A DNA stretch of 64,000 bases from Octopus vulgaris (lineage: Eukaryota): NCBI GenBank assembly GCA_951406725.2, contig OX597814.1:155930001-155994000 (forward strand). Reading direction: 5' to 3'. Shown one piece after another: positions 12,174 through 47,719 of this stretch. Made by a program: the position numbers and the translations under genes. Each line of letters starts with the position of its first letter. Positions within the stretch are counted from its first letter, which is position 1. The notes beneath the pieces were generated by a model. The model searched no databases. It saw nothing but the letters and a program-made list of their open reading frames with translations, and was not told the DNA's origin.

Positions 12174-12321
12174 ATATAATTTAATATATGATTCAGAATA
12201 GTAATTGTAGATATTAATTTGATAAAATGTAATCTTGTATATCTCTATCATAGATAATGTCGTTCAATGTAGTTTGAGTTGCTTGAAGGTGGTTCTGTCT
12301 CTTAAACCTATATATATATAT

Positions 12322-14235
12322 AGCCTTCTACAGGTATGCCAAAGAAACAGCTATGGTGCACTGTAGGATAGGGCCACTCCTTGAAAAGGATGGCACACTC
12401 ACAGGAAATCCAATGAGGATAAGTGAAATACTAAATGAGCAATTCAAGAGTATTTTCACGCCACCCCTAGGGCATTTTCAAGTCAGCAATCCAACTGACT
12501 TCTTTACCACTGCAGATATAAAATCGGAGGCAGCGATGATTGATTACAACAATATAAAGGAAGACGATGTAATAAAGGCTATTGATGAAATGAAAACAAA
12601 CTCAGCTACTGGCCAAGATGGATTCCCAGCAATCCTTCTAAAAGTATGTAAGAGAGTCCTAGCAAGACCACTGTAGTTCCTCTTTCAGAGCTTCCTTGCA
12701 ACTGGCAAACTTCCAAGAAAACTGAAGGAAGGTAAAATATGCCCTATTCATAAAGGAGGTAGCAGAGCGGAGGCCAAGAACTACAGACCTATCTCTCTGA
12801 CCTCACACATCAGCAAGGTCATGGAACGAATAGTCAGAAGGAAACTAATCACCTTCCTTGAAGAAAATGACTTGCTGCCTGACACCCAACAGGTTTTCCG
12901 ATCAGGAAGAAGCTGCTTAACTCAGCTCCTACAACTGGGTGCTGAAACGACTGCTCAACCACTCAAATGTGGAAGTCATATATCTCGACTTTGCAAAGGC
13001 CTTTGATAAATTCCATCATGGAATGCTATGTCACAAACTGCGTGATCTTGGCATAGTTGGAAAATTGGGAGAATGGCTTCATGACTTTCTGAAGGATAGA
13101 AGTCAAGTGGTAGTAGCCAATGGGGCCGCTTCCACTAACACGCAATTAGTGAGCGGTGTTCCGCAGGGCACTGTTTTGGAACCACTACTGTTCATAATGG
13201 CCCTCTCAGACATGCCCTCAGCCACGCAGAGAGCCACGATCACAAGTTATACAGATGATACAAAAGTTTCACAGGCAATACAGAACCCTGAAGACACTAA
13301 GCACCTGCAATGTGAGCTGGACAAAATATACAAGTGGGCTGAAAAGAATAGCATGCAGTTCAATGCTGAAAAGTTTCAAGCTCTATGCTATCAGCACGCA
13401 AAACTAAATGCAATACCCAATAAATACACTGGACCTGGAGGGACTGCAATCCCAGAGGCACAATCAGTGCGAGACCTGGGTATTTACATGAGTGATGATG
13501 CAACCTTTCATGTGCATGTTGCTAAATTGGCAATGAAATGTAGGCGGCTGACCGGATGGATTCTTAGAACCTTCAGAACAAGAGACCAGGAAACCATGAT
13601 GGTCATCTGGAGGACACTTGTCCTAAGCCACTTTGACTATTTCTCTCAGCTATGGTTACCATCCAGTGTCAAGTTAATCACAGAACTTGAGGCGATCCAA
13701 CGAAGCTACACGAAGAAGATAGCCTCTGTGCAGCATATAAGCTATTGGGAAAGACTCAAGAGATTGAGACTCTATTCATTAGAGCATAGGTGAGAAAGAT
13801 ATGCCATAATATACATCTGGAAGATCCTAGAAGGACTTGTCCCAAACTTTGGCATCGAGAGTTACACAAATGCCAGAACTGGGCGCCACTGCATTGTGCC
13901 AAGGAAACCAAATTTGCCATCAAGATGTAGGACAAGATACTGTGATAGCCTGGGCTTCGGAGGCCCACAGCTCTTCAATATCCTCCCAAAGAACCTAAGA
14001 GACCTGCATGGGGTGGATGCAGATGTCTTTAAAATAAAACTGGATCTCTTCTTGTCAGGTGTCCCAGATGAACCAACTTCACGGCAGGAGGTGCAGTTGA
14101 GGGCAGTTGCATCGAACTCTCTCATGCACCAAATGGCAATTGCTAAAAAGCATTCGTGAATTAAAATCATGTAGCAACACCAAATGGCGGTGCCCCAGCA
14201 TGGCCACAGCTTGTGAGCTGAAACTAGATAAATAA

Positions 14236-14245
<10 letters not shown>
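12322..14245 (+). mobile_element. CR1-group LINE, 5'-truncated, RT pseudogene plus 3' UTR and A-rich tail
   Basis: ORF fragments 12353, 12821, 12939 and 13896 give NYRPISLTS, YLDFAKAFD, SGVPQGTVL, YTDDTK and YWERLKRLRLYSLE. The tail is atggcggtgccccagcatggccacagc..ctgaaac. Flanked by (TA)n. Confidence 0.92.
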
Positions 14246-14278
<33 letters not shown>

Positions 14279-14304
14279 TATATATATACGGTTATATATA
14301 TGTT

Positions 14305-16972
14305 TGTAGTTTTAGCTCAGATTTGTGGCCATGCTGGAGCACCACCATTTTGCTACACTGTTATCACTGTGAGCCTCCTCTAATATGTGGCACTTGGTGA
14401 AGAATGAAGTTTGATGTAGCTATCCTCATTGCCCCTCTTGCCGTGAAGTAGTTTCTTCTGGGACTCTCGCCAGCAAGATGTCCAGCCTTGATTTAAAAAC
14501 ACCTACATCTACTTTGTGCAGGTTCCTCAAGCACTTTGAGAGAATATTAAAAAGCTGTGGGCCCCTGAAACACGGGCTGTTGAAGTAACAGCTCCTGAAG
14601 CGCGATGGCATTGCTGGGATATTTGGCACTATGCAGTGTCGACCCGTTCTGGCATTGATGTAGCTTTGAACGCCAAAATGTGGCACAATTCCGTCAAGGA
14701 TCTTCCAGATGTACATTGCTGCATACCTCTCCCTCCTTCGTTCCAGGGCGTAGAGTCTTAGCTGTTTCAGCCTTTCCCAGTAGCTGAGCTGTTGCAAAGA
14801 GGCGATCTTGTTTGTGAATATTTGCTGGATTGCTTCAAGGTTCGCTGTTAATTTTACACTGTTAGGTGACCATAGCTGGGAGCAGGAATTCAGGCGGCTG
14901 AGGACGAATGTCCTCCAGAGGACCATCAGAATTTTCTTTTTTCTGGTTGTGAATGCTCTCAGAATCCATCCAGCTAGTCGCCTGCACTTTGTCGCCATCC
15001 TGGGAATGTGCATTTGCTAAGAGGTATCATCACTCATCTCGATACCTAAGTCCCTCACCGATTTAGGCTCTGGGATTGCAATTCCCTGTGGACCAGTGTA
15101 CCCTGTAAGTTTCATATTTAGCTTCGGACGCTCATAGCGTAGGGCTTGGAATTTTTCAGCATTAATCTGCATATCATTATCCTCAGCTTATCTGAGAGGG
15201 CCACTATGAAAAGCAGTGGTCCCAAAACAGTGCCCTGTGGAACACTGCTCACTATTTGTGTTTTCATAGAGGTAGCTCCATTGGCCACTACTGCCTGACT
15301 TCTATCTTTCAGAAAGTCATGTAACCACTCTCCAAGTTTTCCAGCGCTGCCGAGATTACGCAGTCTGTGCCATATCATACCATGATCCACTTTGTCAAAA
15401 GCTTTTGCAAAATCTAGGTATATTACGTCCACATTTGATTTGTTGAGTAACTGCCTCAGCACCGAGTCATAATGTTGTAAGAGCTGGGTCAGGCAGCTCC
15501 TACCTGCTGGGTATTAGTCAGCAAGTTATTTTCTTCAAGGAATGCGATTGATTTCCCTCTGACTAGCCGTTCCATGACTTTGTTGATGTGTGAAGTCACG
15601 GAGATAGTTCTATAGTTTTTGGCATCTGCTCTGCTTCCCCCTTTATGGATTGGGCATATTATTCCCTCCTTCAGCTTGCTTGGCAGTCTGCAATTTGCAA
15701 GAAAGCTGTGAAGGAGTTTTGCCAGGACACACTTACACGATTTAAGGAGGATTGCTGGGGAACCGTCATGACCAGCAGTTGAGCTTGCGCCTATCGCATC
15801 TATGGCTAGTAGTATATCTTCGCTAATGTTGATGTATTCCATTGTAACTGTCTCGCTGGTTACAGGTGAGGCGGCAAAGAAGTCGATTGGTTCGTTCATT
15901 TGTCTGTGTCAAAAAGAGGTGGTAAAAACACTTTTAAACTGGTCATTCAGTATCTCACTGATCCTGGTTGGACTATCTGCGAGGGAGCTATCCTTTTGGA
16001 CGAGAGTCCTGTATTTCAGGGTACTGAAGTTACTTCTTCCGCATAATGAAAGAAGACCTTTGGGTTTGACTTAATGTTTTTTATAACCCATGCTTCTTTG
16101 TGTGCTCTTTCCCTCACATTAGATTGTCGCAGGCTTTTTTACAATCTCCATCAGTGTTGTTTTTAGGCGGGACGTTTCGCTACGTTTGAGATATTGGTGG
16201 AGGCGATTTGCAACCTTCGTCCGTTGTCTCATGAGGATCTTCCTCTCCCTTGGAATCTTGTTCCTATTTGTGTTGGCCTTGTGCTCTGGGCCATATCTCT
16301 GGCATATGGCTTGCATACCAGTCATGAAATATTCTAGTTTCATGCCAAAGTCTGGTGTGGAGAGACGTTTCGACCAGTCCTGTCTGAGGATCTCTTTTTG
16401 GATCGATTTGCAGGCTGCTTTGAGGAAATTTAGATTGGAGAGATTTAGGGTGCTTCCTTTAAACTGTATGTCTGGCTACTTTCGGCTCAAACATAGCCAG
16501 CTCTATTATGCTTGATCTGAGACTAATGTCGGCGTCCCTTTCACATCATGAACCATATCCATATTGTTCATGAAGCAGAGATCCAAAATGTTATTTGCCC
16601 AAGTTGGTCTGAGTAAAAACGTGCTCCATAAATAGGGCATTGGTGAGGTTGAGCAGTGATTCCACCTGTGCTTGTTTAAATGAGTCGTTCCAAGAACATG
16701 AGGCCTTCTGGACATCTGACGTTGGGGAAGTTGAAATCACCCATAAGATATATGCTCACGTGGCGTTCTAGTTTCAAGAGAATTTCTTTAATTCATGTGA
16801 GGCAATCTTCAGATTGCGTATGTGGTTTTGAGCATCCGGTGGGCAATATGTATTGCATATGACTATATTGTCTTGTCGGATGTATACAGCAACTCCAATT
16901 TCCAATATGGCTCCTTTTCCTTCTGTCTGTTCGCAGTATGGCATATTTTGGTACGTGTACTTCTGCATTCTC
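14305..16972 (-). mobile_element. Second CR1-group LINE (APE endonuclease + RT relic)
   Basis: APE motifs GVAVY, NTYCPPD, MGDFNFP and NILDL; RT motifs YLDFAKAFDKVDH and VPQGTVLGPLLF. A deletion near 15190 removes the YxDD region. The 3' tail is homologous to that of the first LINE. Confidence 0.92.
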
Positions 16973-22340: not shown

Positions 22341-22830
22341 CCTTTGTTTTCTTCTCACTTATTTGTGTCTCTTCTTACTAACCGTCAGCCATTTTGTATT
22401 TCTATTGTATGTCTTCATTTGCGCATGCTTTATATCTCTATGTGCGTCTATGTTTATTTAGTGTGGGGGGGGGATGCCTGTAATATTTGTATCTTCTGTT
22501 TATATACATTCTTGTAATTTGTATTTCGTTTTTGTTGTTGTTGCTTTTGTTCTAATTTTGTTCATGTGTTTACATCCACCCACTATTATCATTACATATA
22601 CTTGTATGTATGTATAACAACAATATTAGTAATAATAATAATAAATCTAATCGAAAAAAAAAAATATATATATATATATATATACATGTATATATACACA
22701 CATATATGCACATATACATATATATATATATACACATAGACATACATAGATATATACACATATATATAGTTATTCATTTCTATCTGTTTATTTACCTGTG
22801 TATTTATTATGTTTTCAGGATCCTCTATCG

Positions 22831-24245
22831 TCATATGTTGTGGTGTGTGCTATTGCTCCATTCTAGTTTTCTATTCAGGCTAGGTTTACTTTCTATTATA
22901 TGTGTAGCTTCTGTAATTTGTCTAATTGTTGCATCTGTTCTATATGTGGACAATATCTTAATCTCTATGTTATTGATTGATCCCCCGTGTTCCTGTTCGG
23001 CGTGTTGGTACAGAATCGCTGAGCTTTTACCTTCCTTGAGTTGTCTCCAATGTACATTCACCCGCTCTCCAATGCTTCTTGCTGTTTCCCCTACGTATGT
23101 TACTGTCTCGTTACTGCATCGTCCCTCTATACATCTTATACTATAGACTACATTTCTGGCTTTACAGTTTGTTTGTGGGCTAAATCTACATACAGTGCAA
23201 TAGTTATCCGTACAGAGGGTTCTACTAAAAGGATAGGTTCTACCAATTATAGATCTGATAGGGTTGCCTGGCTTTTCAACAACCTTAATTCTTAGTTTAA
23301 GTTTATCTAGGGTCCTTCTAAAGCGGTACGCCAGTTCACCTCCAGGGGTGGTGTCAACGAACATGACACTCTGGTATTTATGGCTATCATACCAAGAGTT
23401 GGCCTTCCCTATTTTCTTTTTTGTCCTTTCTATAGTGTTCCATGACTTGTTCCTATAGATTGGGCAAATCCCATTCCTATCATTACATAATATATTATCA
23501 AATTTCTTCATGGCTCCTTTGTATACTCAGATCCTTTCTTTATGGCTGTAACCTGAGAACTGCATGCGGTGAATGAAATACTGTATGTGTCTCTTTAATT
23601 CTGTAGGCTCGCACATGCGTGACACATTTCTCATTATTCTGACGAGGTCTGCCATCAAAATATTGAATTTGGCATTGCCCGCAATGGTTGAGTTCCGGTG
23701 GATCAGGTATTTTGAGGCCATAGGTTTTGCATAGTATGAATGAAGGATATGGGTTTTATTTTTCACAATTTCTAGCCAGAGTTCAGTGTCTAGTACTGGT
23801 AGTCTATGGTTGGGGTGTTTAGTGGGGTAGTCTATTGTGACCTTAATACTCTGGTGGATGGAGTTAGCTATTTGCTGGATGCTTTCCATAGTATTAGTTT
23901 CTATTACTATATCAACATTACTCTCTTGTGGGGGTGCCTTTACTACTATGTTGATATCATCAACATAGCGAGAGTACATGTTTACGAGTATGGATTTCTG
24001 CAGTAGGCATTCTTTAAGCCTTCTGTCCCACCATACCATGAAGAGGTTGGCCACATCACCAGCGATACTAACACCGATGGCTGCCCCATCGTCCTGGGCA
24101 TATATTTTATTATTAAATTTAAATGTGTGGCCTTTTAGGGTAACTCTTATACTAGCTCCTAGTGCATGTGCGATCATTTTCTTTACCTGATGGACATTTG
24201 CGGGGCTCCGTATGGCTCTGGTCCATCCGCGCCATCTACTGGTCC
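22831..24245 (-). mobile_element. Naiad-like Penelope element: RT + Cys linker + GIY-YIG, 5'-truncated, single in-frame TGA
   Basis: GAAIGVSIAGDVANLFM, RYVDD, LPVLDTELW, YYAKPMAS, FVDTTPGGELA, IKVVEKPG, CTDNYCTVC, VVYSIRC..YVGETARSIGER..H, LNRKLEW. ORFs 23527..24177 and 22831..23511 are in the same frame, separated by TGA at 23527-23529. Confidence 0.88.
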
Positions 24246-24334
24246 ATCTACTGGGGCAGAAACTACTAGTAGATGTTTAAGAGGTAGACCGCCTACAATT
24301 ACTTCTATGGCTAGGAAGACACATATAGAAAGAC

Positions 24335-24970
24335 AACATGTTTTCATTCCAAAGGAATAAATGGTGCATTATGCAATCTTGTCATCAGGAAAGAAAGGGA
24401 TCCTATCTCGACAACAAGACAAACAAAAATTTCGATGACTGCCTACATGGTAAACAAAGCGATAATGAGTGTTTTTTTAAAGAAACCGTTAGAAGAATTG
24501 ACGTCAAAGATAGATAGTAGGAAGAGAAGGGTTAAAGAAATAATAGGTAGGGAACAAGTGGAGAGGGAAGGGTACGTTGACTGAAAGAATGTTCTGCACT
24601 GGCAGAAATACACTTTCTACTCATATAAATGATAACGATAGTCACTGTGGTTTGAACAATTAGCTTTACGTCCACCCCACTTCTATAGAGAAATTCTTTC
24701 CTAAGCCTTCGAACATTCTTTCAATCAACGTACCCTTCCCTCTCCACTTGTTCCCTACCTATTATTCCTTTAACCCTTCTCTTCCTACTATCTATCTTTG
24801 ACGTCAATTCTTCTAACGGTTTTTAAAAAAACACAGTCATTATCGCTTTGGTTACCATGTAGGCAGTCATCGAAATTTTTGTTTGTCTTGTTGTCGAGAT
24901 AGGCTCCCTTTCTTTCTTGATGAGAAGATTGCATAATGCACCCTTTATTCCTTTGGAATGAAAACATGTT
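24335..24970. repeat. 260-bp inverted repeat (24335-24594 / 24711-24970), 116-bp spacer
   Basis: The arms are reverse complements with scattered substitutions. The right arm runs into an HHR-like motif at 24911-25001 (UUGAUGA-GAAGA...UCUUC-GAAA-CUU..GAG-UA). Confidence 0.9.
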
Positions 24971-25127
24971 CTCTTCGAAACTTATGTCGAGAGTAAAGGA
25001 ATTTTGTTAACATCTTCGTTCGACTCCATTCTTTCCTTTATTTATATACTTATATATGTACATATATATAAATACATATATATATATATATATATATATA
25101 TTACACTCCCACACACATATATGGATA

Positions 25128-32800: not shown

Positions 32801-35651
32801 AGTTACTCAGGCTTGCATCAAATGATATAGAGGCGTGTACCTTGCATCAAACGATGTAGAGGTGTGTACAGAAAGAGGAGGGGACATATTGAACGGCATA
32901 TATTTAATTTGGCATCTAAATATATACATAATATCATTAAAGGAGCATTGAAGTGTTACATGATTCAATAAAACAATGTTTGTAGCATATATAGATTCAA
33001 AAAAAAACAAGACGAAATAGATGAAATAAAAAAAAAGAAACGTTTTAATGTAAGCATCGCGACCCCGTAAAGCGAGTCTTTCGCCCTGAATTGCATATGG
33101 CTGATTGAAGCTACAGTAATGCAGGCACCTCTCTGTGTAGTTGAAGTGGCTTAAACGTTGCCAGATGTGATACTTATTTTCCAAATCACGCCCATTAGTG
33201 ACACTGTCAATCTATATGAATATGGCAATTAATAGTAAATAAGACAATAGTCAAATTAGGACATAAAGGGTAAAATGTAATGATTGATCGTATGAAGAAA
33301 CTGAATGCAATAAGATAATACATTTGTGATCTTTAAAATCAGTTGATCATCTTCACCGAACTTGTGAAACAAGTTTTTTGAAAATTGTAATTTCTTTTCT
33401 TGAAATTTACTCAATAAAAAATAGGGCGTATTCCTATTCAAAGGAAAAATAAAGCAGTTATAATTTTCTCCTGAGAACTTTGCATTCTTAAACAAGCAAT
33501 TAGAATATCTATTTTTTATACACAAACTTACATCTGTGTTAATTTTACTGTACATGTTCCTTAAGTATTTAAGCGCGTCCGAAACGACTACCATCCAAAC
33601 AAAGCATACTCTTTTATAGAAGGTTGTGACTCCAATGAGATTTAGCTGCTAGCTTCAGTAAATTGGCTACACAAAGAATAGTTCAAAGACTCGATACGAC
33701 GCATTTTTATAAATATCGGAATAGATTTTAATTCATAACTCCGTCACAATTACCAATTTGTGTAGAAAAAGCCACCGAGACAGCAAGGGACTTACAGCGA
33801 AATCAATTAATCTTCATGATTAGTAGCTATTTCTCCCTCAAACTATCCCCCAAGAACATAAAAAATACATTCGACAATGTAACCCCGTAGTCCGAGATGC
33901 GCTATTGTTGAGAAATAGATGGCTTCTTAATGACAGAACAATTTAATCAGAGTTCACTCTGGAAACAAATTGGCTGTTGCAGCAACAACAACATATTCTA
34001 TGAAGTTGATACCATCTAATCTCAAGTTATACGTAAAACACCAGTTACAATACTAAACCGTGTGTGCTTGTATTTTCCAGTGATTTTGTTGTTTACAGCG
34101 GTGAGCTATATCGGTTATGTGATTTATTCAGAGCAACTAGATGAATTGGACCATATTTATCTCAAATGACTCCGACATCGGCATCCCTGAGGTATAAGTG
34201 GCTAGATACGGACATTTCACAGAGATGGTGACAGATAACGAACTGGCAACGTTTAACTCGCCGTCAGTAATAAACGACCATAGATTACAGGCATACATAC
34301 ATAAACATCGAGATTTACACTCATGTAAACATATATATATATAAATATATGTGTGTGTGTGTGTGTGTGTGTATAAATATAGTTATATTCATATATATAT
34401 ATATATATATACGTATGTGAACACACATAAATACACATACGTGTGCGTATATGTGATAGTCCGAGCCTTTATATTTTTGTTTTCATTATTTATCCGTTAT
34501 CAAGAGATCGTTTAACACTATTCTTTTTAAATGCGTGCCATTGTCATCAAAAATGCGTGTTCCACGCTCCCGTTTTCTCGCTCATTGATGGCATTCGTGA
34601 TAACAAACGCAGTTCGTTTATTTATCATTGCATTACTAATTTAAATCTAAAGTAAATAGAGCAAATTCTCTATCACATATGAAATTAATTTGTTTAAATA
34701 ACATGCTTAATATTTCTAAAACAGTCCTAACTAACTGCTTACTCACTTAGCTACAAAGAAAAGTCGAGTTGGTTGGTTCTTACATAAACAAATATTCTTA
34801 TGCATTCGTGTTCCTGATAATTCTGCTCTTTAGTAAAAAAATCTCTGCTTTCGTGAAGTTTTCTTATAAGTTTCTGTATGGTTGTACCTCGTCGAGAATC
34901 GGCTGCGTAATTTTCAATCAATGAAGACTTGCTTCATGTATGAATCATGCCAAATATCATAAGTTCACTAATACTTTTCAAACCAAATTTAAATGTGACA
35001 TGAATAATTTTATGAGTCCCGAAAAACTTCAATTTTCTGATAAATCTAATAAAACAACAAAATTATCTGTCACTATTTTTTATACAAATATTTTCCAAAC
35101 ATAAATGACAAACATAAATATTTAAAATAGTGTAAATTTTTAGTATAAAAATATGATTCAGAAAGTTGCAGTCCATCTGAACTCGAAGCTTATCTTGCGC
35201 TTAATAACCATAAGGGACATTTTGCCTCAAATCCTGAGTGTAAATAAGTTGTGTACAAAATGGAGACAGGGTTAATAACGAAGAATATTTTACATAAAAT
35301 TAATTATAATGTTAGGAAAACAACGAGCCTCTAGGAATGGAATAACAGCAAAACAATGATTAATTCATACGATAGTATTAATATTCAATGCGGGTCTAGG
35401 ATCATCCGAATTAACATTACTGAAACTTATTCTTGTAGGAATTTATTTCACTCATTACTGCCCGATATTTTGCTAGAGTACATAATAACATAGAAGGTAG
35501 TCACATAGTTTTCAATTTTCACCTAGGGAAGTTTCTGTCTGGTTTCGGTCCTGTGTTAACATAACAAATCCCACGAGTTTCTTCTTTGTCATTACGGAGC
35601 CGTTCGATTATAGAGAGATATATGATCTCATCGAACAATATATATATAAGG

Positions 35652-36308
35652 ATTAATAAATCTCTGAACGAGATATAAACAGTAACCGCTCGACAACGTA
35701 AAGTGTACTAGCCATCTGAATGTGGCTAGCCACTGGGGGTGGGGTGTTACTGATGCTTTTAGCCCCAGGAGATCAACGTCACCAGCTGGCCTTAGACACA
35801 AAATTTCAGTGCCCTTGTGTTATTTGCAAAGGGAGGTCATCCTCCCTCGAAAACCTAAGTGATACATACGGACTATAGTTTCAAGGTAATTGTCTCTCGT
35901 CAACGCATGGTAAACACCGATTTTCGATGAAGGAGACCCTCTGCAAATAATACTATTTAACGTTTTTCACAGCAAGCACTGTCACTGATTTAGAAAAACT
36001 GTCTGAAAGCATTAATAAATCTCTGAACGAGATATAAACAGTAACCGCTCGACAACGTAAAGTGTACTAGCCATCTGAATGTGGCTAGCCACTGGGGGTG
36101 GGGTGTTACTGATGCTTTTAGCCCCAGGAGATCAACGTCACCAGCTGGCTTTTCGAGGGAGGATGACCTCCCTTTGCAAATAACACAAGGGCACTGAAAT
36201 TTTGTGTCTAAGGCCATCTGGTGACGTCGATCTCCTGGGGCTAAAAGCATCAGTAACACCCCACCCCCAGTGGCTAGCCACATTCAGATGGCTAGTACAC
36301 TTTACGTT
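35652..36308 (-). mobile_element. Retrozyme-like 359-bp tandem unit (1.4 copies) plus a 159-bp inverted copy, flanked by (TA)n
   Basis: 35652-35790 repeats at 36011-36149 (period 359). 36150-36308 is the reverse complement of 35695-35853. Confidence 0.85.
35865..35909 (-). ncRNA. Type I hammerhead ribozyme motif
   Basis: Minus strand CAUGCG-UUGACGA-GAGacaauuacCUU-GAAA-CUAUAG-UC-CGUAUG: 6-bp stem I, palindromic stem III, GUC cleavage triplet. Confidence 0.8.
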
Positions 36309-36324
36309 AATATATATATATATT

Positions 36325-37062: not shown

Positions 37063-37247
37063 TCCCTTTGCAAGGCGATACGAATTTGAATTTTATCATA
37101 CGGAATATGAGTGTTATTTGGTATAAAGAGGTACCCTATCATAGAAATTAGAGGAAATAAAGTAGACAATAGTGGAGTAGAATTTATGGATGATAGTGTT
37201 TTCAGGTAAATGGACAGAAATCGATAAAGTAACTTGGTATTTTACAA
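37063..37247 (+). repeat. 185-bp inverted duplicate of 39998-40182
   Basis: Reverse-complement match, with one mismatch seen by eye. Confidence 0.9.
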
Positions 37248-37519: not shown

Positions 37520-37802
37520 TGTATTTGTCATGACTTGTATTGGTATTTTGTACTGTATTCCACTTTCACTCACAACTCCACTTCTACCAAAAATAATATA
37601 TCTCCTGACCTACATCAACCAATCATAGCCTTCATTTATCACAGTTTCATAATATTATGTTCCACCATATCACCTCAATCCTCTTCGATTTCAATTTCAT
37701 CCATAACCTTTCATTATTTCATTTCAGCAAATTGTATTTGCTTGAAAATCTATATATAAATATCCTGCAGAGTGAGTTGTTCGTCGAGGAAGCGGTGCCT
37801 AC

Positions 37803-37847
37803 CATACGTTGATAATAGGCAAACACCTTGAAACCTAGGTCCGTGTG
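37803..37847 (+). ncRNA. Type I hammerhead ribozyme motif, U3-A8 core (copy 1)
   Basis: CAUACG-UUGAUAA-uAGGcaaacaCCUu-GAAA-CCUAGG-UC-CGUGUG. Stem I extends through gaagcgg/ccgcuuc and uauccugca/ugcaggaua. Predicted cleavage after 37841. Confidence 0.82.
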
Positions 37848-38162
37848 TGGTTTCCGCTTCATCGGGGAATTATCTCCCTTTGCAGGATAGAGGACGCCGT
37901 GATGGTGTCAAGCCTATCTGGCGACGTTGATGTTCGCCTGGGGCTAAATGCAACAGTAACACCCCCACCACCCTGCCCTATCCCTAGCCATATTCAGATG
38001 GCTTTAGTCCCTTATGTTATGGAGCAGTTACTGTCTATATCTCATTTAGAGAATTATTATTGCTGTCGAACAGATTTTCGAAATCAGCAAATTGTATTTG
38101 CTTGAAAATCTATATATAAATATCCTGCAGAGTGAGTTGTTCGTCGAGGAAGCGGTGCCTAC

Positions 38163-38207
38163 CATACGTTGATAATAGGCAAACACCTTGAAACCTAGGT
38201 CCGTGTG
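38163..38207 (+). ncRNA. Type I hammerhead ribozyme motif (copy 2, identical)
   Basis: Same sequence 360 nt downstream. Predicted cleavage after 38201. Confidence 0.82.
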
Positions 38208-38649
38208 TGGTTTCCGCTTCATCGGGGAATTATCTCCCTTTGCAGGATAGAGGACGCCGTGATGGTGTCAAGCCTATCTAGCGACGTTGATGTTCGCCTG
38301 GGGCTAAATGCAACAGTAACACCCCCACCACCCTGCCCTGTCCCTAGCCATATTCAGATGGCTTTAGTCCCTTATGTTATCATATTTTGTTTTTCATTTA
38401 ATAAGTAAATTATTTAGCTTGTATTTATTTCCTAATGTCTAATAATTTATTTCCTTGTTTTTAATCTAACATCTAATTCTATTCTCTTATCTTAACAATT
38501 TCGTATCAACATGCTGTATAAAATATTACTAATTAAACATTTTTTTCGGAATTTCGTCTTATCCAGTTTCATTACATCCCACTACAAACATTTCTTGTTT
38601 TCCTAACTATAGATCTCACCCTCTTTTTTACCGGACATTAGCGCCACCC

Positions 38650-41600
38650 TCTCCCTTTTTTTTATCGTATGCTCTCATCGAAAAGATAATAGTACCAGCA
38701 AATCATTGGGATCGATGGCATCGACTGATTACTAACTCCCCAAATTCCTGGACTTTTGCCTAAATTAGAAATTACTCCTATAACTATTACTGAATAAAGA
38801 AATAGCGGTTCTCTCCAGTTTTGATGTTCTTCCGGATTCTTTATGCTATATCTCTGATCCTTCCTTAGAGAAAACATTTTCCTTAACGCATGCGATGTTT
38901 TGAGGACAGTCACCCCTTGTATACTTCCAATGATGTCAGGTAGTTCGAAATTTTAATTTCTTATAGATGGTTTCCAGTGCACTAACAACTATGCTCATCG
39001 CGCTAATTCTTCAGGCTGTATGAATACGCTGTATTGTGAAAGCTAGGCCATGCTACTTACGGGTTTGTCATTCTCGTCTCTGTTCTCTTAGGGCGGTAAC
39101 GCTATAAAAATGAAAACCCATTCATTGGTCTCTTTTCATATGAGTGTGGTATTTGATAGATTTTACTGAAGTATCTTACCGGTGCAGTTTGTCACATCCC
39201 GAGTGATTTTCAACTTGCTCATTCTCTGTAACTGGAAAGAGTTGGTGTTCATGCCACTCATAGTTACACTCTAGCTCGTACTTTACCAACCGTGAAATGT
39301 TGTATCGTTTTCTATACCCCTGGGCCGATTCTCAACATACACTAACTACAATCGTTTACAGATTAGTTTCCACACAATGGACATACATATATTGCTCATG
39401 TCTTATCAATGTTGTACTTGATAGCATTAGTTAGCAAAACTTGTTCTTGAGCAGCAAGGAACAAACCTTTAGTCTCCTTTAAAAACCATATCTTAACCAT
39501 ATCCAGAATTCCTCACCTCGATTCGATATTTGTTGGAAAAACTCTCCATGTAGTACTTTCTCTAGTTTTCTATCTTACCCTTCATGAGTCTTCCTTTTAA
39601 ATTCCTTAAGCTTCTGGTTATCATCCCTAGTCACCTCACACATTGTGACCCGAAACATCCATTTATCTATATTCTTAGTATGTGCATTCAATGATTTACC
39701 TTCTTTCCTACCACACTTCTCTACTCTATGCAATCTTTCCCTCCGGCATTGTTTGGAAGATAGCCCTAGCTACATTACTTCTGGTATGAAAGTATTTGTG
39801 CTTATCTTTCTACTTCTTTCTATGCTGACCTGTTTCTCTTTTGTCAAATCTACAGGTTATTACATCAGCCCATGCTTACAATTTAAGTGTTAATGCCATG
39901 CCATTTGTCATATTGATTCATTTAGCTTGAATCTACACGATTTAGATTTTTTCTTCTAATCTGCTATGATCATCTTGATTTCAGTCATCTGGTTTCATTG
40001 TAAAATACCAAGTTACTTTATCGATTTCTGTCCATTTACCTGAAAACACTATCATCCATAAATTCTACTCCACTATTGTCTACTTTATTTCCTCTAATTT
40101 CTATGATAGGGTACCTCTTTATACCAAATAACACTCATATTCCGTATGGTAAAATTCAAATTCGTATCGCCTTGCAAAGGGAGACAATTTAATCCCTTCT
40201 AGCCCCGTTAAACGTCAGATTATCCATCAATAGTGGGAAGTGGTTGTTATGTTTTTTCAACAGACTCGATCTTCAATCTATAACCAGATTTTATTTTCAA
40301 AACCAAAGTCAATGGTAACAATAAAAACAAACAACTGTGGCAAAGGTCCTCAACCTGCTGTCAAACTTGTCTTTGAATTCCTAGTACTGTAGCTTACTCA
40401 AGATATAGTTTGAGCTGCCCCGATCATCTCCCGGCATTTCCTAATCTACGAGTGACATATCATGCCTTTAGCATTTGATGCACTGTTCCTTTAGATCCCT
40501 CCCCCGATTCTTTTATTCATCAGCTATTAATGGCTTTCTTTCCAAGAGTTCATACTGTATTTCTCCCACTATTCCATATCACGAGAAACCAGACTATCAC
40601 TTGGTAGTTAATAACATAAGCTCCAGCTTTTGTTGAGACCGGGTAAATTTGCCTCTTCTCGTTTTTCTCCATCTACAATTTCGAACACCAGGGTCTGGTT
40701 AGTTCTAAACAGTCTATTTTGTTTGAACTGTAGGCATCTTTCCTCATATCATCTGATCTTTATTCCATCAGCTTTGATCTTTTTGAATCAAACAATGTTC
40801 CATTTTCTTACGGGTGTTATATCACTTTGTCAAGTCACTTATTTCTTCACCTTACCTCTTCAATCTAACTCAAATTATTTTTTTAATTATCCATATTACC
40901 TCCGATTTACGAAAATTGTATATTGCTTCTCTTTCTTTTCTCTTCCTTCAACATATACTCATTCTTTCCGTAGTGACATGTGCAGCGCCATACATGAACA
41001 CGATTCCTCTTTGTGATAGTTTTAGTTTGAATTTTCAGAACCTTTTCTTTTACTTCCCCATCCTCCGATATCAGCTTTGAAGACGAACGAAATACTGCTA
41101 AGTATTTTGACTGGCGTGGTAACAATTCTGCCAGCTTACCGCCTCTGAAGTTCCTCAATGACGGCAATCCTTTCTTCTCTACAAAAAACATCACCTGTAG
41201 AAGTTCTGTCATGCGAATCTGTGCTGATCTCTCCTCGTGACTTTTCAGCTAAAGGGTTATATTGTGGTTCTCTACAGCTGGCATATTTCCCTCTTCCATA
41301 TCCGAGCTATGCTGATTCCCTTATACAACGGGTATTTCTTCCGGGACTGCATTTCATTTCTCATTGCCTCTGTGCTTTTATCTTGTACCACATTTTCTAA
41401 TCAAAACTTCATATTGATTTGAGTCGCTTCTTTTCATTGACAACCTTCAGCTCATCTTGGTGGTAAAATTTTCTCCAGGGATGTGATCATTTATTTTATA
41501 GTCTTGTTTTTCTAGCTGACTCCTGATGTAACTTGCAAAGAACATTTTATTGTCCTCTTTTGACCTTATTAATTTCATTTGTTGTTCGTCAACTGCAACT

Positions 41601-42751: not shown

Positions 42752-43094
42752 TCAAAATAAGCAAAAAGAACATATTCGGTAATTTGGTACGATCGTTTCA
42801 CGCTACATCATTTTATTAAACATTGTAAGTATTACAACAGTTTTAAAATGTTGAGCAATCATCAGCCATTTATAGATGTTTTCCATTAATACATATTTTC
42901 AAATTAATTGATAACAGCCCTCTCTATAATGTTATCAATTAATATGAAAATATGTATTAATGGAAAACCTCTATAAATGGCCGATGATTGCTCAGCATTT
43001 TAAAACTGTTGTAATACTTACAATGTTTAATAAAATGATGTTGCGTGAAACGATCGTACCAAATTACCGAAGATATTCTTGTTGCTTATTTTGA
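42752..43094. mobile_element. Foldback element, 165-bp arms (42752-42916 / 42930-43094)
   Basis: Reverse-complement arms with a few substitutions and a 13-nt spacer. Confidence 0.88.
42785..42868 (-). ncRNA. Type I hammerhead motif, canonical CUGAUGA core (mirror copy 42978-43061 on plus with CCGAUGA)
   Basis: UGG-CUGAUGA-uUGC...GCGu-GAAA-CGAUCG-UA-CCA, with palindromic stem III. Confidence 0.7.
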
Positions 43095-45294: not shown

Positions 45295-47719
45295 ATGGAT
45301 CACTTTTGCGTCCGTTATTTTAGAAATTTTGCCTTTATGAGGGTCATTTTTAGTCATTTCGGTTGTTTGTGGGTTTTAAGGATCTTAAGTGTGTGTAAAA
45401 TGTCCTTTAATTTGGAATCCTTATGCAACATTGGTAAATTTTAGGTGACAATGGGGAAGGTTTCTTTGTTTCTGGGGTTGTATGTGTATATGTACGACAG
45501 TATTTTCGGGGAAGGTGTGTTGCTGTGTTGAACTTTTCTTAAGGTTTCTATGTAGATATGTGTTGCAAGTCTGATTCCATCCTCTATGAGATGAACTGGA
45601 CAGTGGTTGTTAATCGGGGTGTTTTTGAGATCTTACAGTGTAAAGTCTCTGTTATTTTGTCTGACACTATTGGTCATATCCTTCTTGCAAGGTTCAAGGG
45701 GATGTTTGTTTTGGTGTCTTGGGTGGCAGGAATTAAATAGTAGATATTGTTTAGCGTCTATGGTTTTGTAAAATATCTCTGTTTCTATTTTTAGGTTTAT
45801 TTTATAATTAATATATCCAAGAATCGGAGTTCCTTGTGGTGGTATTCCGTTGTAAACTGTATCTTTGGGCTGACGCTGTTCAATAGTCTTTTGAATTTTA
45901 GGAGTTAGCCTGTGTTTTCATTCCAGAGAATGAATCAGTCATCTAGGAGTCTTTTCCAATTTTCTTTTATGTATTGGGAAAGGGGGTTTCCAAAGGTAGA
46001 TAACGATTTCTGGTAATTATTATTTCCAGATAGCCCATTGTTAGATTCTCAATGACCAGGGCGACCCTAGTGCCCATGTTATTTCCAGATTTTTGTTGAT
46101 AAAGCATATTGTCAAACATAAAATGGTTGTTTCGTAGGATGAATTCAACCGATTCAATTATGAATTCTTTGCTGATCCTTTCCGGTATTTCTTCCGGATA
46201 TTGGTTCAGCCAGAACTGAATTGCCTCTAGCCCATAATTATGAGGTATACTGGTATATAAATTAATCACATCAAATGAAACCATGATTGTTTCTTCCTTG
46301 ACTTCTTTGGAGGTGATTTAACATGTCCAAGTCATATCTAATATAGTTATTGATGTGTTTAAGAAAGGGTTTCAGGAGGATGTTCATAAATAGACTTAGT
46401 CTGTGTGCTTCACAGGCTGGGCCAGTTATAATGGGTGGTAATTGTAGGTCCGCTGGGTTTGTTGCATGTATATACGTCTTCGGTGATTTTTTATGTTTTC
46501 ATTTATAATCTGACTTTTGTTGAATTTTGGTAGACTGTAGAAAAGGTTAGGTTTGCATTTAAAGTTTGTTAAATAGTTAATTTCTTTGGTTGTTAGTTCT
46601 TTTCCATGGGTTTTAATTAGTGAGGACAAGATTTTCATTATTTTTTGCGGGGTGTGTTTAGTGATTTTTTCGTAATGTTGACTGTCATTCAGCATAGGGA
46701 TTAATAGATTTCTATAGTATAATGTGTCTATTACTACCACTGCACTTCCTTTATCTGCTTTCTTAATCGTTATATCATCTTTATTTTGAAGTTCTGTTAG
46801 TTCCTTCCATTGTGTAGTGCTAAACCTTTCCCTAATAGCCCGCTCTCTGTCAGGTTAATTTAGTATTATTTTGATCTGGAATTTGCGTGGAAGAATAATT
46901 GGTGTTGATTTCATCCATCTCTCGTAGATATCTGCTCTGTTGGAATTTTTTATCATATTCCAGAAAGCTAGTTTTCTATTATGGAAGTTTGTATTCCAGA
47001 TGTTCTCTACTTTTCTTTTTGTTAGATTGACTTGTAAGTATGACGTCCTGGTGTGTTTCATTTGATGTGCGTTGGTTGTTCTTCGGTTTGTTTGTGAAGA
47101 CCGACTTCAGTGTGGTGCATAGAGTGTTTAAATCTTTACTAATCTGTTCCTGTTTTAAACTGAATTCATTGTAAGTGTCGTGGAGAGAGAGTTGTTCATT
47201 GTTGGGTTTGTTAATAAACATTGAGTTGAGAGTTGTGCATAAAAGTTGTAAGCCATTACTAACCTGATCTGTGAGATGAGTTGTTTCTTCAATGTTTTTC
47301 CTCTCCCGGGCGAGTAGGTTTGAGTTCTCGATTTTGTTATTTATGATAATGAGGTGCGATTTAATATTTTTGAGTTCTTTAAGTATGTCCTAGTTTGTAA
47401 TTTTATCTGATGTATTGGTCTTCTGTGGCATTTTCGGTTCCACGTGTTTTAGCTTATGGTTGAGGGAGTTGGTATGTGAAAGAACGTCGTTGAATGTACA
47501 ATAGACAAAAATTAGGTGAAAAAAATTAAAAAAGACGTGTTATATGGTTAAAGAATATATTTAAATTGTTATGCTAGAAAAATGTTATAAAATTTTGTGT
47601 ATAGTAACATTGTTTTTGGAGAAATAACCATCATATTTTCTTCTCAAATTTCTCAAATTTCTTTGCCAATACTGTGTCATCTCTTTGCTAGATATCACAG
47701 TACGAGAGTTCCAGACAGG
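45295..47719 (-). mobile_element. Degenerate Penelope-like element (N-terminus and RT)
   Basis: IKKADKGSAVVV (~46740), FYSLPKFNK, VSFDVINLYTSIPH, NNHFMFDNMLYQQKSGNNMGT, IFYKTIDAKQYL and TNIPLNLARR. Multiple stops and frameshifts. Confidence 0.88.

Follow-up and report, generated by a model that had tools for sequence, protein, structure and literature searches.

A 360-nt hammerhead unit in Octopus vulgaris belongs to a dispersed retrozyme family with PLE-like insertions

What kind of element is a head-to-tail hammerhead repeat that encodes no protein, and how does it spread? The question was raised by a 64 000-nt stretch of Octopus vulgaris DNA (contig OX597814.1; hereafter the window), in which direct repeats at 37724-38020 and 38084-38380 recur with a period of 360 nt, giving 657/360 = 1.83 units. 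The two copies differ solely at 37920/38280 (G/A) and 37980/38340 (A/G). An ORF scan over 37724-38380 found overlapping ATG ORFs of only 47-67 aa at most. The original prediction, a reading of the letters alone, had described an ORF-less 360-nt unit present 1.8 times with two differences, and each part of that description was borne out. The predicted monomer has a folding z of -4.3 as a linear RNA (0/100 shuffles equally stable) and of -3.6 as a circle (25 shuffles). The features of the repeat are:

37724..38083, + strand: unit 1, 360 nt; the insertion is a partial tandem truncated at its 5' end
38084..38380, + strand: partial unit 2, 297 nt, terminating at the 'short' 3' end of the retrozyme family
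37842..38201, + strand: predicted monomer, branched rod fold, GC 0.45
38021..38064, + strand: 44-nt 'tail', the interval from the short (~297) to the long (~341) 3' end; it is internal here

This copy is a single arm without an inverted partner; it lies outside (AT)n and has no clear target duplication, and nine reading frames of its flanks gave no Pfam family. It is enclosed by a 185-nt inverted pair (37063-37247 and 39998-40182, 99% identical), possibly an inversion or duplication scar, that was absent from the first 80 retrozyme loci fetched and had no Pfam match in its flanks. A TATA-like stretch at 37751-37763, ~80 nt upstream of the predicted cut, is AT-rich but variable in other lineages. 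At 37929-37966 the contig depth in one run (X15) reached up to ~100 times that of the unit start, which suggests that numerous further copies, short or related, share that part.

At the level of sequence, the repeat is a non-LTR retrozyme as defined from the available text of PMC7229834 (this and the other papers are cited here from partial text): a tandem unit of 150-450 nt (here 360), GC below 50% (0.45), a hammerhead, no ORF, dispersed copies and a self-paired monomer. An autonomous PLE was considered and rejected, the repeat having no RT and GIY-YIG ORF.

Each unit holds one type I hammerhead:

37803..37847, + strand: hammerhead 1, type I, predicted cut after 37841
38163..38207, + strand: hammerhead 2, identical to hammerhead 1, predicted cut after 38201

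In hammerhead 1, stem I (37803-37808 with 37842-37847) forms 6/6 pairs, one of them U·G; the core UUGAUAA occupies 37809-37815, with U3-A8; stem II (37816-37829) has three Watson-Crick pairs, a U·U mismatch at its base and a CAAACA hexaloop, and is followed by GAAA; the stem III palindrome ACCUAGGU spans 37833-37840, with C17 at 37841. All of this is repeated at +360. The motif is as originally described, but its core is non-canonical, which had gone unremarked: the window copy departs from consensus twice, with U3-A8 for C3-G8 and U10.1·U11.1 for G10.1-C11.1 (G-C or G·U at the latter position in lineages D, E and F, introduced below). Both departures have precedents, U3-A8 as a natural covariation (PMC3088659, PMC4209133) and U10.1·U11.1 as a tolerated mismatch (PMC3088659), with a U·U also in HHR_Amex2 (PMC7229834). 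The Rfam hammerhead models gave no hit at gathering threshold over the window, none at E<=10 over 37600-38500, and none in 8 lineage C loci despite their canonical core.

In an alignment of 39 hammerheads drawn from six lineages, standard pairs made up 95.1% of cells and 9/15 pairs had double changes. None of 500 shuffles reached either value, a test that relatedness inflates; slid controls, free of that fault, paired at 30-52%. Stem III is a perfect palindrome in 101/131 locus-level cores, with seven different sequences, and is self-pairing in 126 when G·U is included, a regularity that is partly built into the search patterns; a pattern that hardly constrained the stem III loop gave 98 self-pairing sequences, by hand count, among the 100 matches listed. 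The computed energy of an intermolecular stem III is -11.4 kcal/mol, versus +2.9 for a lone hairpin. Folded as circles, 19 monomers gave z values of -1.7 to -6.5, and in a fold common to 20 monomers 15/80 consensus pairs were doubly changed. These data are most simply read as selection for a double hammerhead, cleavage itself being predicted. The fitness of the palindromic stem III for such a structure had been proposed from the window copy, and the covariation of helices and palindrome across lineages agrees with it.

The genome searched comprised 2.8 Gb in 227 contigs. The unit search returned 1535 candidates, 40 of which were scored to give at least 129 matches of 88-100% identity on many contigs. 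Together with the core patterns, this outlines a dispersed superfamily of ~355-364-nt units with hundreds of copies and at least six lineages. We counted at least 66 exact U3-A8 cores in lineage A, at least 71 exact G8 cores in lineage B (where position 3 was left free in the pattern and is U in all aligned copies), at least 44 matches to a C3 pattern, mostly of the divergent lineage C, at least 404 cores in lineage D and at least 111 in lineages E and F, all of these being lower bounds from patterns of unequal strictness between lineages. Monomer length was 353-364 nt in 28/29 natural tandems, and unit length is conserved between lineages that are ~70% identical. The repeat is therefore not a one-off local duplication; copies are dispersed genome-wide and partial tandems recur among them. 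The original prediction was silent on this wider superfamily, on the two fixed 3' ends, on the inverted arms and on the (AT)n target, and it did not include the lineage D element that spans about 35650-36310 of the same window:

35654..36151, - strand: lineage D element, partial tandem with a period of 358, 70-77% identical to the 360-nt unit
36150..36308, + strand: inverted arm of the lineage D element, terminating at the short end in (AT)n

The minus-strand arm terminates near the long end, also in (AT)n, and its hammerhead core at 35903-35871 is U3·G8 with the palindrome ACUAUAGU. Elsewhere (locus L102) a lineage D copy lies inside an RTE-like LINE, and the pair has then been duplicated four times at a spacing of ~1385 nt.

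Except in lineage C, core position 3 is U, and position 8 is A in some copies and G in others; C3-G8 is confined to one divergent lineage; in the alignment the 3-8 column pair was UG 15, UA 14 and CG 8 times of 37. By hand count, the first 100 of 404 lineage D matches comprised 91 U3·G8, 7 U3-A8, 1 C3-G8 and 1 unrelated, and 100 matches listed of 111 in lineages E and F comprised 71 U3·G8 and 29 U3-A8. U4 G5 A6, A9, G12 A13 A14, A15.1-U16.1 and H17 were invariant in the 39 aligned sequences, which is again partly built into the search patterns. A simple path from C-G through U·G to U-A was rejected, as 30 lineage B U·G rows are nested among U-A rows in a 76-row tree. A wider tree (78 of 112 rows, midpoint root, no direction of change implied) needs 7 changes each for U-A and U·G, 5 of them forced by supported branches and some arising from single copies. 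Given the nesting in lineage B and the several switches in the wider tree, a single ordered path is unsupported. The single change to U3·G8 would be expected to impair a hammerhead strongly, and kinetic data for a U3·G8 core were not found in our literature search. Either the U3·G8 ribozymes cut slowly and are assisted by dimerisation or a protein, or spread depends little on the rate of cleavage; the ribozyme of the Anolis Poseidon PLE (PAc), for one, cuts only with protein (PMC11167929).

Evidence on how the units move comes from the anatomy of their insertions, which we scored in 65 loci (L001-L030 and L041-L080, after removal of one twin and of four loci that repeated a single place) that had been picked by best unit match or exact core, a choice that favours long copies and arms. 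Of the 103 outer 3' ends in these loci, 52 fell within positions 290-297 of the unit and 45 within 335-341, the other 6 lying elsewhere. The fixed ends adjoin (AT)n in 91/97 cases. Two inverted arms were present in 38/65 loci, and 32 of these 38 paired one long with one short end. Exact tail-to-ATATAT junctions numbered 512 genome-wide, and the reversed control gave 0. The long end is common to lineages C and D, and lineage D has both ends. Published PLE insertions sit at (TA)n targets as partial tandems with an inverted 5' arm, one of the ends carrying a tail of 30-40 nt (10.1101/2021.04.23.441226); in vitro, this tail corresponds to the interval from one internal RT start site to the other (PMC11167929). 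The octopus copies have the same signature, i.e. 5'-truncated partial tandems, an inverted 5' arm, a tail and a microsatellite target, with a tail of 44 nt that slightly exceeds the published range. On this genomic signature, mobilisation of the retrozyme by a PLE protein is well supported. The original prediction had suggested such mobilisation, and the copies do carry the insertion marks, but linkage to a PLE ORF in the same orientation was absent from 40 loci selected by their tails (of the 512 junctions).

We give a probability of about 0.6 to the reading that this is a non-autonomous non-LTR retrozyme mobilised in trans by a GIY-YIG PLE protein, via a circular RNA. The cycle would begin with read-through transcription of a copy with two hammerheads. 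Adjacent hammerheads would then pair their palindromic stems III and cut, releasing the 360-nt monomer; the paired structure is backed by covariation and its activity is presumed, the cutting being probably slow or helped by protein. As in the mussel and axolotl retrozymes, a host RtcB-type ligase would close the monomer to a circle. A PLE endonuclease, which the (AT)n signature in the genome points to, would nick (AT)n DNA, and RT would begin at two internal RNA positions separated by 44 nt, each serving one DNA strand. Running round the circle, it would produce partial tandems of up to about three units together with the inverted second arm. Counting against this reading are the two core departures of the window copy and its position outside (AT)n, the U3·G8 core of large lineages, the normal insertion of ribozyme-dead PAc RNA, the single dimer of nine that cleaved in Xenopus, the lack of similarity to the PLE ends compared, and the small divergence difference given below.

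Several observations bear on the template. Arms longer than one unit made up 54/104 (the longest 1139 nt), long arms being over-sampled by the selection of loci. The 5' truncations are spread out, with 1/103 at the cleavage site versus ~3 expected if uniform. Variants that are rare elsewhere in the sample were shared by 20/75 tandem pairs and 32/108 inverted pairs. Taken together, arms exceeding the unit, scattered truncations and shared rare variants indicate that the cut linear monomer is not the template and that units pass through a single-unit bottleneck. Median divergence within a locus was 0.98% versus 1.15% to the nearest other locus, and was lower in 64/114 pairs; as the difference is so slight, this test of the template is a weak one. 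Differences at three or more common alleles occurred in 9/183 pairs. No run recorded as RNA was listed as containing the unit. Three runs labelled 'RNA?' and one untyped run (all as contigs of uncertain type) cover the unit and the head-to-tail joint, and tandem DNA gives the same joint; the unique upstream flank had zero cover in those four runs.

A circle accounts for all of the template observations, and an uncut multimer with template jumps could also do so. The latter would be mobilised by the same PLE machinery, extra units arising by RT template jumps or re-priming, and the hammerhead would act in processing or recognition, slowly and under the control of a protein. The anole PLE inserts mainly unprocessed RNA, and its ribozyme is protein-dependent (PMC11167929); U3·G8 lineages have been amplified at least as much as U3-A8 (71 versus 66 exact cores, and 91 of the first 100 of 404 in lineage D); and the absence of cut-site truncations fits an uncut multimer equally well. 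Against it, the invariant catalytic positions and covarying palindrome are most simply selection for paired-hammerhead cleavage, unit length is conserved at ~70% identity between lineages, and a family descended from 5'-truncated parents would need a step that regenerates the unit. We regard the uncut multimer as unlikely, though it fares best among the alternatives to the circular template. A fuller version of the circular reading can be offered tentatively: that the RT of a PLE with no terminal sequence in common copies the hammerhead RNA as a circle, by two-site internal priming and rolling-circle synthesis, and that U3·G8 wobble cores function in vivo through dimerisation or help from the PLE protein.

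Which PLE might supply the protein? PLEs do occur alongside the retrozyme: the same genome holds young families whose open frames run to 781 and 811 aa. Both families have (AT)n ends and tails of ~38-43 nt, i.e. they insert as the retrozyme does. An exact look-up of the two proteins found neither. The 781-aa family (L147-L165) is very young: from 17,754 candidates, the 150 matches scored show 97-100% identity in the endonuclease part. It has internal repeats in its 3' region, where a relaxed scan found no recurrent hammerhead. The 811-aa family (L126-L145) carries a minimal hammerhead ~110-150 nt past the ORF stop, with the core UUGAAAA (U3-A8), a 7-bp stem I and the palindrome ACCGGU, so this genome has U3 cores in autonomous elements as well as in non-autonomous ones. 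In the window itself, a 5'-truncated PLE without retrozyme similarity lies on the minus strand at 22770-24975 between AT-rich microsatellites, with RT and GIY-YIG-like ORF pieces at 24276-22831 (one stop between) and an inverted 5' arm (24330-24594/24711-24975). Degraded PLE pieces occur at 45967-47389, which is ~78% identical in protein to the young 811-aa family, and at 1766-2860. Other repeats of the window include two degraded, inverted LINE-like RT copies (12287-16515) and a MITE-like 165-nt inverted pair, 13 nt apart, at 42752-43094 (71-84% matches in 4 other loci).

The existence of these families raises the idea that the repeats are truncated ends (pseudo-LTRs) of an autonomous PLE, an explanation that is now largely refuted and that we consider very improbable. 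All of the insertion hallmarks are PLE-like, PLE ends are known to bear type I hammerheads including U3-A8 (PMC4209133), as does our 811-aa family, and the scan covered part of the genome's PLE families. Yet the units stand head to tail with no ORF between them; at four wider hammerhead spacings, the arrangement proved to be duplications or separate insertions, likewise without an ORF between. None of 40 tails had a PLE ORF upstream in the same orientation, and two of those loci had an unlinked PLE piece nearby. The hammerhead of the 811-aa PLE is minimal, whereas that of the retrozyme has complete helices and a hexaloop. In blastn of the retrozyme against PLE ends (55 PLE loci, E<0.05) there was no similarity to the 781-aa or 811-aa families, and matches in one PLE locus (L143) were a neighbouring retrozyme copy. 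Similarity to the other PLE pieces of the window was likewise none, and tblastn of 80, then 110 retrozyme loci with those pieces gave nothing. Finally, a satellite or local duplication by unequal crossover around a chance or dead ribozyme-like motif, for which the missing Rfam match, the non-consensus core and the crossover proposed for vertebrate retrozyme arrays (10.64898/2026.07.22.740005) might be cited, is refuted by copies on many large contigs with fixed 3' ends, variable 5' ends, inverted arms and compensatory changes.

Returning to the retrozyme mobilised by a PLE, its closest published relatives are the mussel (Mytilus galloprovincialis, 350-390 nt), Acropora and axolotl (Rtz_353/HHR_Amex2) retrozymes, which are likewise ORF-less tandem units with a type I hammerhead, GC below 50%, a self-paired monomer, a short stem III needing a dimer, and coexisting PLEs (PMC7229834). 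The octopus superfamily differs from these in that position 3 is U except in one lineage and position 8 is then A or G, and in that most copies are short insertions scattered over the genome, with inverted arms, (AT)n targets and a pair of fixed 3' ends; in the octopus family cleavage and circles are predicted. With PLE pseudo-LTR hammerheads, including Cercyon of Schistosoma mansoni, it shares U3-A8 covariation, the palindromic stem III and the dimer model, but those motifs are minimal and sit at the ends of ORF-bearing elements, while the octopus unit is ORF-less with a 6-bp stem I, a 4-position stem II and a hexaloop (PMC4209133). The two 3' ends with a tail, the AT-rich target and the extension of both strands recall PAc, which differs in encoding its own RT-endonuclease and in having its tail in the ORF start; in PAc, the one PLE to have been reconstituted, RNA with a dead ribozyme is inserted as usual, and RNA-seq gave no reads ending at the cut (PMC11167929). 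Chlamys non-autonomous elements (e.g. MRC1) and Naiads similarly have head-to-tail and inverted insertions, tails and a (TA)n bias, but those clades have no hammerheads and have 3' sequence in common with autonomous partners (10.1101/2021.04.23.441226).

PLE mobilisation has itself been hypothesised before (PMC7229834; 10.64898/2026.07.22.740005). The Xenopus retrozymes are, like ours, viewed as non-autonomous PLE dependants; the evidence there is co-occurrence and homology to PLE ends, and here it is an insertion signature without homology to the tested PLEs (10.64898/2026.07.22.740005). That survey covers 31 vertebrates, 3 insects and a coral with canonical and minimal descriptors, and 1/9 Xenopus retrozyme dimers cleaved in vitro; the word 'tail' is absent from its available text (10.64898/2026.07.22.740005). 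Our search of papers found no such retrozyme or hammerhead family described in octopus or other cephalopods, in keeping with what the original prediction had supposed. The giant squid genome has 235 Rfam hammerhead hits, given without analysis in the available text (PMC6962438), and 'hammerhead' and 'ribozyme' are absent from the available main text of a 2026 octopus repeat annotation (PMC13282606).

Three features appear to be novel: an ORF-less retrozyme that bears the tail and inversions of PLE insertions, a U3·R8 core throughout the family, and the series of palindromes. How animal retrozymes move has been a matter of a PLE role proposed from coexistence and homology; the octopus insertions add genomic evidence of an unusually direct kind for PLE mobilisation of animal non-LTR retrozymes. 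An ORF-less retrozyme here bears the two-start-site tail and inverted arms that are made by a PLE protein in vitro, so the claim can be tested directly on candidate proteins that this genome encodes. With their U3·R8 core, hundreds of hammerheads here escape Rfam, so counts of animal ribozymes may be underestimates. The lineages also form a natural series (C3-G8, U3-A8 and U3·G8, with seven palindromes) on cleavage rate versus spread. If circle copying and functional U3·G8 cores hold true, the family would be a natural, tractable system for PLE trans-mobilisation and would represent a core variant missed by standard ribozyme searches.
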